Assembly (NCBI RefSeq): GCF_003790525.1
Contig: NZ_CP033635.1
DNA length: 64,000 nucleotides
Source of the DNA: Escherichia coli
Lineage (GTDB): Bacteria; Pseudomonadota; Gammaproteobacteria; Enterobacterales; Enterobacteriaceae
Direction: 5' to 3' (one strand)
In this document: positions 24,897-26,854 of the stretch, piece by piece
Layout of the letters: the number at the start of each line of letters is the position of its first letter
How positions within the stretch are numbered: position 1 is the stretch's first letter
Position numbers and translations under genes: made by a program
Notes under the pieces: generated by a model
Told to the model about the DNA's origin: nothing
The model's input: the letters and a program-made list of their open reading frames with translations, nothing else
Databases searched by the model: none

Positions 24897-25949
24897 ATGA
24901 AAAAGACCCGTACAGCCAATTTGCACCATCTTTATCATGAACCCTTACCCGAAAACCTGAAGCTCACGCCGAAGGTCGAAGTGGATAATGTTCATCAACG
25001 ACAGACAACGGATGTCTATGAACATGCTTTGACAATTACCGCCTGGCAGCAGATTTACGATCAGCTGCATCCGGGCAAGTTTCATGGTGAATTTACGGAA
25101 ATTCTACTCGATGATATTCAGGTTTTTCGTGAATACACTGGTCTGGCGCTGCGTCAGTCGTGCCTGGTCTGGCCGAACTCGTTCTGGTTTGGCATTCCGG
25201 CGACGCGCGGTGAGCAGGGATTTATCGGTTCGCAATGTCTGGGAAGCGCAGAAATTGCGACGCGCCCGGGTGGAACCGAGTTTGAATTAAGTACGCCGGA
25301 CGATTACACGATCCTGGGCGTAGTGCTTTCTGAAGATGTCATCACTCGTCAGGCTAACTTTTTGCATAATCCGGATCGGGTATTACATATGCTGCGTAGC
25401 CAGTCGGCGTTGGAAGTGAAAGAGCAGCATAAAGCCGCGCTGTGGGGCTTTGTCCAACAGGCGCTGGCGACATTTTGCGAGAACCCGGAAAATCTTCATC
25501 AGCCTGCTGTGCGTAAAGTGCTGGGGGATAATTTGCTCATGGCGATGGGGGCGATGCTGGAAGAAGCGCAGCCAATGGTGACGGCGGAAAGCATCAGTCA
25601 TCAGAGTTACCGTCGATTGCTTTCCCGCGCCCGTGAATATGTGCTGGAAAACATGTCTGAACCGGTAACGGTGTTGGAGTTGTGCAATCAATTGCATGTC
25701 AGCCGCCGCACGCTACAAAACGCGTTTCACGCTATTTTAGGCATTGGCCCAAACGCGTGGCTGAAACGCATTCGCCTGAACGCCGTACGCCGCGAACTGA
25801 TAAGCCCGTGGTCGCAAAGCACAACGGTAAAAGACGCCGCCATGCAGTGGGGATTCTGGCATCTGGGGCAATTTGCCACGGATTACCAGCAGCTGTTTGC
25901 CGAGAAGCCGTCACTGACGCTGCATCAGCGGATGCGGGAGTGGGGGTGA
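24897..25949 (+). CDS. eutR: EutR, AraC-family activator of the eut operon
   Basis: 350-aa ORF with C-terminal AraC-type HTH; last gene of cluster. Confidence 0.9.
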
Positions 25950-25954
25950 GGGAG

Positions 25955-26854
25955 TTACACCCAATCCCTGACCTTAATAAACTCATTTAACGCCGCTTCC
26001 GGGCTGCCATCTTTTGGCTGATAATCATACTCCCAGCGTACCAGTGGCGGCATTGACATCAGGATAGACTCGGTGCGCCCGCCGGTTTGCAGGCCAAACA
26101 GTGTGCCACGATCCCAGACCAGATTGAACTCGACATAACGACCGCGACGATATAACTGGAAATTGCGCTCGCGCTCGCCGTAGGCCATCGTTTTACGTCG
26201 CTCTACAATTGGTAAATAAGCGTTGGTGTAGCCTTTGCCTACCGCCTGCATAAAGGCAAAACAGTGGTCGAAGTCTGGCGTGTTCAGGTCATCAAAGAAC
26301 AGGCCGCCAATGCCGCGTTGTTCGTTACGATGTTTGAGGTAGAAGTATTCGTCGCACCACTTTTTGTAACGCGGATAAACGTCTTCACCAAATGGCTGGC
26401 ACAGGTCACGGGCGGTGCGGTGCCAGTGAATGGCGTCTTCTTCAAAACCATAGAAAGGGGTTAAATCGAAGCCGCCACCAAACCACCAGACGGGCTCTGC
26501 ACCCGGTTTTTCGGCAATAAAAAAGCGCACATTCGCGTGGCTGGTGGGAACATACGGATTATGCGGATGCACTACCAGTGAAACGCCCATCGCCTCGAAA
26601 CTGCGCCCGGCAAGTTCCGGACGATGAGCGGTGGCGGAAGCAGGCATCACCTCACCGTGGACATGTGAAAAGTTGACGCCTGCCTGTTCGAAAACACCAC
26701 CATTACGCAAAACCCGACTACGCCCGCCGCCGCCAGCTTCGCGCAGCCAGCTATCTTCGACAAATTCTGCGCCATCGACGGCGCTCAACTGCTGACAAAT
26801 CGTATCCTGAAGGTTGAGCAGAAACTGTTTAACCTGGTGTGCGTCGGGTTTCAT
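25955..26854 (-). CDS. hemF: Oxygen-dependent coproporphyrinogen III oxidase
   Basis: ORF trimmed to ATG 26852-26854 ([23 protein letters not shown]); ORF-track start is a GTG one codon upstream. Confidence 0.9.

Follow-up and report, generated by a model that had tools for sequence, protein, structure and literature searches.

At the eutR-hemF junction of Escherichia coli, the eut operon (ethanolamine catabolism) and the amiA-hemF unit (cell-wall and heme genes) meet tail to tail, with 5 bp between the stop codons of eutR and hemF. We studied this junction in 64,000 nucleotides (nt) of E. coli DNA (assembly GCF_003790525.1, contig NZ_CP033635.1), called the window below. We think it likely that these are two unrelated transcription units, eutS-eutR and amiA-hemF, and that the read-through from each is ended by the termination factor Rho inside the gene that faces it. 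The junction is an ordinary one, neither unusual nor new, and is already annotated in E. coli genomes. Tight convergent junctions that are resolved by Rho are a known and common feature of E. coli. Peters et al. reportedly described in 2012 how Rho terminates gene-end read-through and antisense RNA in this species.

The annotation of the window was transferred from the near-identical strain SC516, which differs from it by 1 base over positions 1-31056; the coordinates are collected in Table 1. eutR ends with TGA at 25947-25949. hemF, with its annotated ATG at 26854, ends with TAA at 25957..25955, and the intervening GGGAG was read directly. The gene amiA lies 3 bp upstream of hemF, and the two are given as an operon in PMC8910356. 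The eut operon runs uninterrupted for 14.8 kb. An earlier reading made from the sequence alone (the original prediction) had described a 15-kb eut transcript running into an amiA-hemF unit, with the two stops 5 bp apart; its coordinates, gene names, and spacing agree with the open reading frame (ORF) list, the annotation, and our direct reading, and both transcription units were described accurately. Troup et al. are said to have written of a "hemF operon" in 1994. In the SC516 mapping, a 169-bp noncoding gap at 18593-18761 separates eutG from eutH in the otherwise tightly packed eut operon.

The evidence for Rho on the hemF side comes from a map of Rho termination regions in K-12 (Adams et al. 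2021, eLife, PMC7815308), for which RNA was sequenced directly, both with and without bicyclomycin (BCM). Supplementary file 2 of that study lists position 2554640 on the + strand, classed as "antisense eutR," with a Rho score of 4.5 (P = 8.9e-8). Reads in the 800 nt upstream and the 800 nt downstream of this position numbered 78 and 18 without BCM and 102 and 106 with it. The K-12 + strand is the hemF strand, and by coordinate mapping the position corresponds to 25439 in the window, which is 516 nt past the hemF stop. The published data thus give a read-through in the hemF direction that is raised by BCM, and the sequence of the junction is identical in the window. In K-12, amiA-hemF read-through overlaps the 3' end of eutR and is then stopped by Rho.

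The untranslated RNA that precedes this termination zone contains two stretches with a marked excess of C and little G. The C excess of its first 80 nt (25875..25954) is at the 97th percentile of 80-nt segments in the 64 kb and at the 94.5th percentile of the antisense-of-eut background. The stretch with the strongest bias of C over G (25515..25594) is at the 99.7-99.8th percentile, and its K-12 equivalent has C30/G13. Both stretches are conserved in K-12 and, judged by their base composition, are putative Rho utilization (rut) sites.

No curated Term-seq 3' ends are listed between K-12 positions 2553700 and 2554899, either in LB (two densities) or in M63 (PMC7815308), and the TERMITe supplements contain no entries for hemF or eutR. 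The original prediction had named defined 3' ends in the coding regions before the overlap as the result that would speak against it; none appears in this interval. The absence of such ends is also what one would expect if Rho terminated a weakly expressed mRNA diffusely and no protective stem-loop were present (Dar and Sorek 2018).

In the eut direction, a lacZ reporter placed directly after the eutR stop in E. coli 536 is inducible by ethanolamine, with an activity of 37 Miller units, so induced eut transcription extends, at a modest level, to the eutR stop and beyond it. The overlap of transcription from the two sides, which had been predicted, is therefore borne out by hemF-strand RNA that enters eutR in K-12 (PMC7815308) and by eut transcription that crosses the eutR stop in 536. 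The strongest C-over-G stretch on the + strand past eutR is at 26679-26758 (C-G = 21), about 730 nt in and near the 5' end of hemF. Rho accounts for about 20% of the termination at gene ends in E. coli and also keeps antisense transcription down (review PMC12360218). By analogy, it is the likely terminator of the eut read-through too, and we infer that this termination takes place inside hemF.

Several points weigh against this account. The Rho evidence is from K-12 grown in LB, with low read counts taken over 800 nt, and the true termination zone could fall anywhere within a few hundred nt. Part of the read count upstream of the peak comes from the 3' coding region of hemF, which makes the overlap length an estimate rather than a measurement. 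The K-12 eut operon is interrupted by the CPZ-55 prophage, and consequently K-12 data sets cannot show induced eut read-through; the K-12 Rho table (PMC7815308) has no "antisense hemF" entry, eut being both uninduced and split there. The reporter fusion in 536 swaps out the native downstream sequence. Finally, the C-richness just past the eutR stop is moderate (89th percentile) and the RNA is G-rich 200-470 nt further on, so eut read-through could cover most of hemF.

The original prediction had also stated that the junction has no terminator. This is correct for intrinsic terminators and incorrect for factor-dependent ones, given the BCM-sensitive Rho region within K-12 eutR. The 5-bp spacer is too small to hold an intrinsic terminator, and neither stop is followed by a GC-rich stem-loop and U-run. 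A consensus scan of 24500-28000 gave 3 weak sites versus 4.9 expected from shuffled sequences, with no terminator-like site less than 500 nt from the junction on the relevant strand. No inverted repeat was found to span the junction, and no Rfam family matched 24000-28500 at E ≤ 1. Local folds around the junction had no extra stability relative to shuffles (z = -0.2 to -1.5); for the 66-nt folds across it, z was -0.5 on the + strand and -1.5 on the - strand (200 shuffles), and for the 201-nt - strand fold, z was -0.85 against dinucleotide shuffles. The 201-nt + strand fold gave z = -2.5, which was due to long-range pairing and not to a terminator hairpin. Our own scan for hairpins followed by T's was permissive, giving about 180 "strong" matches, mostly inside genes, and nothing stood out near the junction.

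In the explanation that we favor, polymerases from both sides would run through the 5-bp spacer and continue into the facing gene in the antisense direction. The read-through RNA, being untranslated, C-rich, and G-poor, especially on the hemF side, would be loaded with Rho, and transcription would end within a few hundred nt. The unprotected RNA tails would then be removed by exonucleases, and the overlap of the transcripts would probably have little regulatory consequence.

Table 1. Features at and around the eutR-hemF junction, in window coordinates (aa, amino acids; CDS, coding sequence)
Feature	Position	Strand	Basis or base composition
eut operon, eutS to eutR, 17 genes, intact, without the CPZ-55 prophage	11111..25949	+	SC516 annotation, mapped
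eutR CDS, 350-aa AraC-type activator of eut	24897..25949	+	ORF list; RefSeq annotation of SC516 and K-12
Spacer GGGAG, 5 bp	25950..25954	none	Direct reading; same length and sequence in K-12
hemF CDS, oxygen-dependent coproporphyrinogen III oxidase, 299 aa	25955..26854	-	ORF list and annotation
amiA CDS, one transcription unit with hemF (amiA-hemF)	26858..27727	-	ORF list and annotation
Untranslated hemF read-through RNA, first stretch rich in C and poor in G (CUCCCUCACCCCCACUCCCGCAUCCGC...), candidate rut	25875..25954	-	C32/G19 in 80 nt
Strongest C-over-G stretch of the hemF-direction RNA inside eutR, candidate rut just upstream of the Rho peak	25515..25594	-	C32/G13
Rho termination peak zone, irregular hairpin then UUUAUGCUGCUCUUUC	25424..25468	-	PMC7815308, mapped; sequence kept in K-12; 800-nt resolution
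Start of the eut read-through RNA (80 nt), antisense to the 3' end of hemF, possible rut	25950..26029	+	C23/G14, 89th percentile

An alternative is that the transcripts have cryptic, hairpin-defined 3' ends inside the facing genes, produced by weak intrinsic termination or by exonuclease trimming, so that the overlap would be short and defined. Rho-dependent mRNAs are known to be trimmed back to stem-loops (Dar and Sorek 2018), and the hemF-direction RNA does offer candidates: an 8-bp stem, CGCUGAUG/CGUCAGUG, 25-45 nt beyond the hemF stop; a hairpin with a trailing UCUUUUAC about 120 nt beyond it; and a hairpin followed by UUUAUGCUGCUCUUUC at 25468-25424, exactly at the published Rho peak. However, no structure beats its shuffled controls (z = -0.2 to -1.4), Term-seq lists a 3' end at none of the hairpin positions, and the eut-direction RNA has no comparable candidate within 550 nt of the eutR stop. 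The permissive scan gives many similar matches within coding regions all over the window and so does not discriminate. We consider hairpin-defined ends unlikely.

Even less likely, in our judgment, is a collision-driven bidirectional terminator, at which converging polymerases would pause at a stem-loop in the overlap and dislodge each other, leaving defined 3' ends without the help of Rho or a U-tract. We take this class, found by SEnd-seq (Ju et al. 2019), as it is summarized by Wang et al. 2022 (bioRxiv 10.1101/2022.10.23.513370); in that summary, overlapping bidirectional terminators are common at E. coli convergent pairs, numbering in the hundreds, and resemble neither intrinsic nor Rho-dependent terminators. 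At the eutR-hemF junction, small alternative 5-bp stems (GGGUG...CACCC and AGGGA...UCCCU) can be drawn across the spacer, but they are not above shuffles (z = -0.5 to -1.5), and there is no stable stem-loop in the overlap. Sharp, Rho-independent 3' ends on both strands are absent near the junction from the K-12 Term-seq lists for three growth conditions, at a low level of expression. The hemF-direction read-through is sensitive to BCM, whereas the class is described as Rho independent. The efficiency of such terminators is also reported to be low for weakly expressed pairs (bioRxiv 10.1101/2022.10.23.513370), and both units here are weak (hemF, 78 reads per 800 nt in K-12 in LB; induced eut, 37 Miller units in 536).

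The junction is commonplace. K-12 MG1655 has the same layout, with hemF ending at 2554124 and eutR at 2554130. The 120 nt around the junction are essentially identical in K-12 and the window, and the EutR proteins differ by 4 aa. Of 5426 complete E. coli genomes, 5393 have the junction in contiguous form. Its tightness was judged against the 10 convergent junctions of the window, 3 of which are at most 5 bp long. The other two, both verified on the window, are cysM(+)/yfeK(-), with stops 2 bp apart (gap 41077-41078), and ypeB(+)/yfeH(-), with a 4-bp overlap at 52295-52298. The latter offers a parallel, for a K-12 Rho region at 2528751 lies in the facing ligA, about 0.8 kb past the yfeH stop at 2527944 (PMC7815308 table). 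The junction itself matters little, its K-12 counterpart being already in the published list of Rho termination regions. It does have a practical side: the "eutR-hemF intergenic region" that has been used for engineering (reporters and deletions in strain 536) is this 5-bp spacer, and any insertion there alters the 3' ends of both transcripts.

We compared the junction among relatives by a scan for EutR with one genome per species, which gave 63 loci. A convergent eutR-hemF pair occurs in Escherichia, Citrobacter, the Klebsiella oxytoca group, Salmonella enterica subsp. arizonae, Pseudocitrobacter, a Pluralibacter metagenome-assembled genome (MAG), and Intestinirhabdus. No hemF was found within 3 kb of the more distant EutR genes (≤71% identity; e.g., in Yokenella, Buttiauxella, Hafnia, Morganella, Dickeya, and Pectobacterium). 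The positions of the stop codons are conserved, so the gaps differ in length through their intergenic sequence. Every Escherichia clade sampled has a 5-bp gap (spacer GGGAG, ATAAA, or GGTAA); the gap measures 8 bp in the Pluralibacter MAG, 19 bp in Intestinirhabdus, and 54-150 bp in Citrobacter, Klebsiella, Salmonella, and Pseudocitrobacter (23 loci). One or two repetitive extragenic palindromic (REP)-like sequences, which we defined as imperfect palindromes of the type GCCKGATG...CATCMGGC in the spacer, are present in 20 of these 23 longer gaps (e.g., GCCGGATGCGACGC...CTTATCCGGC and GCCTGATAAGCG...CGCCATCAGGC); the same pattern had 0 matches in 168 kb of flanks of the longer-gap loci. The 5-bp spacer of Escherichia contains neither a REP nor a bacterial interspersed mosaic element (BIME). 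REPs are 3' stabilizers and partial Rho-dependent terminators (Harris et al. 2026 preprint; Dar and Sorek 2018). Insulation of the junction by REPs is thus seen in the sister genera and not in Escherichia. For the role of REPs at convergent gene ends, the contrast between Escherichia and the REP-filled spacers of Citrobacter, Klebsiella, and Salmonella offers a neat natural case.

The junction also tolerates disruption. It is missing in its contiguous form from about 31 of 5424 E. coli genomes; in E. coli 2017-02-2CC (locus L068, 141-4000) a 3.9-kb island lies between eutR and hemF, with genes annotated as encoding TPR, SEL1-like, type VI secretion system (T6SS) immunity Tli3-family, hypothetical, and DUF1963 proteins. 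In E. whittamii (locus L006, 4060-5843) there is a 1.8-kb insertion exactly between the two genes, and EutR is 2 aa longer. This insertion encodes a 171-aa GNAT-like protein, its 97-aa upstream partner, and a 223-aa ORF; we take the 171-aa/97-aa pair to resemble a TacT/TacA-type acetyltransferase toxin-antitoxin. Escherichia sp. MOD1-EC7003, from its sequence, has an in-frame stop in eutR and a spacer that is still 5 bp.

Two groups of records in the scan are anomalous. The MAG "Citrobacter sp. HRGM_Genome_0066" is probably a mixed bin, since it contains two junctions (L003 and L035), one of E. coli type (5 bp, EutR 99%) and one of Citrobacter type (54 bp, REP). Contigs of 400-460 bp labeled Bacillus hominis and Prolixibacteraceae (L059 and L060-L061) encode EutR fragments that are 95-97% identical and are probably Escherichia contamination.

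The original prediction saw in the overlap a potential for antisense interference between ethanolamine catabolism and the heme and cell-wall genes; this was purely inferred, and any such interference is probably weak. In its fuller, excludon-like form, the proposal would be that induced eut lowers hemF (and amiA), through colliding polymerases or the formation of an RNA duplex, or that amiA-hemF read-through RNA alters the stability of eutR mRNA by pairing with its 3' region. Transcript overlap is real in at least one direction, induced eut transcription passes the junction, and the Escherichia clades share the 5-bp length although they differ in spacer sequence. In addition, the small RNA MavR pairs with the eutR 3' coding region and shields eutR mRNA from RNase E in enterohemorrhagic E. 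coli (PMC8565329), and this is the same region that the hemF read-through RNA covers. Literature searches found no measurement that ties eut induction to hemF or amiA levels, and no studies of eutR/hemF transcript ends or interference. Interference is unlikely to be important because both units are weakly expressed, because equally tight junctions between unrelated genes elsewhere in the window show that tightness needs no special explanation, and because E. whittamii and some E. coli keep both genes despite insertions of 1.8-3.9 kb at the junction, evidence against an essential coupling. Sister genera, moreover, part eutR and hemF with REPs. We therefore hold regulatory coupling to be less probable again than a bidirectional terminator. 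Least probable of all is that the REP-less 5-bp junction is a derived, Escherichia-specific state that would leave both mRNAs without a protective 3' stem-loop and their ends mutually antisense. From such a state it could follow that amiA-hemF read-through RNA, or the level at which Rho keeps it, affects how stable eutR mRNA is at the MavR/RNase E region, and that induced eut transcription traverses most of hemF and depresses oxygen-dependent HemF where ethanolamine is being used in the gut.

Some further observations concern the strain and its neighborhood. The segment 25450-26450 is about 95.8-96.4% identical to most E. coli; identity is ≥99% in just 26 of 5425 records and 100% in the chicken strain SC516. 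eutR plus hemF is 95.9% identical to K-12, versus 96.4-98.0% for the other segments compared with K-12. The window is thus from a less common lineage or carries a less common allele, and it is a close relative of SC516, the closest genome. That it is SC516 throughout was ruled out by a mismatch at 27436, an approximately 12-bp indel near 37645, and a 1067-bp ISApl1 insertion in SC516 yfeK (record 1250669-1251737) that is absent from yfeK of the window (41079-41447). Mobile elements in the window include an IS4 transposase gene (448-aa ORF) at 42437-43783 on the - strand, between crr and pdxK, and, in the SC516 mapping, frameshifted IS200/IS605 tnpA and tnpB (InsQ) remnants at about 60947-62589 that adjoin gltX. 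A canonical REP palindrome, GCCTGATGCGACGCTTGCGCGTCTTATCAGACCTAC, is at 40106-40141 in the cysA-cysM spacer, and a further REP-like unit begins near 58666. Within the eut operon, a strong Rho-terminated antisense RNA in eutC/eutB is listed at K-12 2558053 on the + strand, corresponding to - strand RNA at ~22026 of the window, inside eutB; its upstream and downstream reads are 523 and 24 without BCM and 371 and 399 with it (P = 3e-86; PMC7815308), far above the hemF read-through.

Compared with known systems, the junction shares with Rho-dependent gene-end and antisense termination (Adams et al. 2021) an untranslated, C-rich, G-poor RNA past the stop, a BCM-sensitive coverage, and the lack of a U-tract hairpin, and its homologous K-12 position is already listed there as "antisense eutR." Nothing essential differs, the documentation being for the hemF direction in K-12. 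With overlapping bidirectional terminators (Ju et al. 2019) it has in common a convergent pair, overlapping transcription, and no canonical intrinsic terminator; that class, however, has an overlap stem-loop, sharp ends, and independence from Rho, whereas the eutR-hemF stems are insignificant, no sharp ends are listed, and one direction is Rho dependent. REP/BIME spacers have their counterpart in the orthologous spacers of Citrobacter, the Klebsiella oxytoca group, Salmonella arizonae, and Pseudocitrobacter, with their one or two REP-like palindromes, whereas in Escherichia neither mRNA has a REP-type protective stem-loop. The excludon, a concept that comes from Listeria, is defined by a long antisense RNA that has been shown to affect expression reciprocally. 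Like an excludon, eutR-hemF has opposite-strand transcripts that overlap at their ends, and its eut unit is strongly conditional; but no reciprocal effect is known for eutR-hemF, and here Rho limits the overlap.

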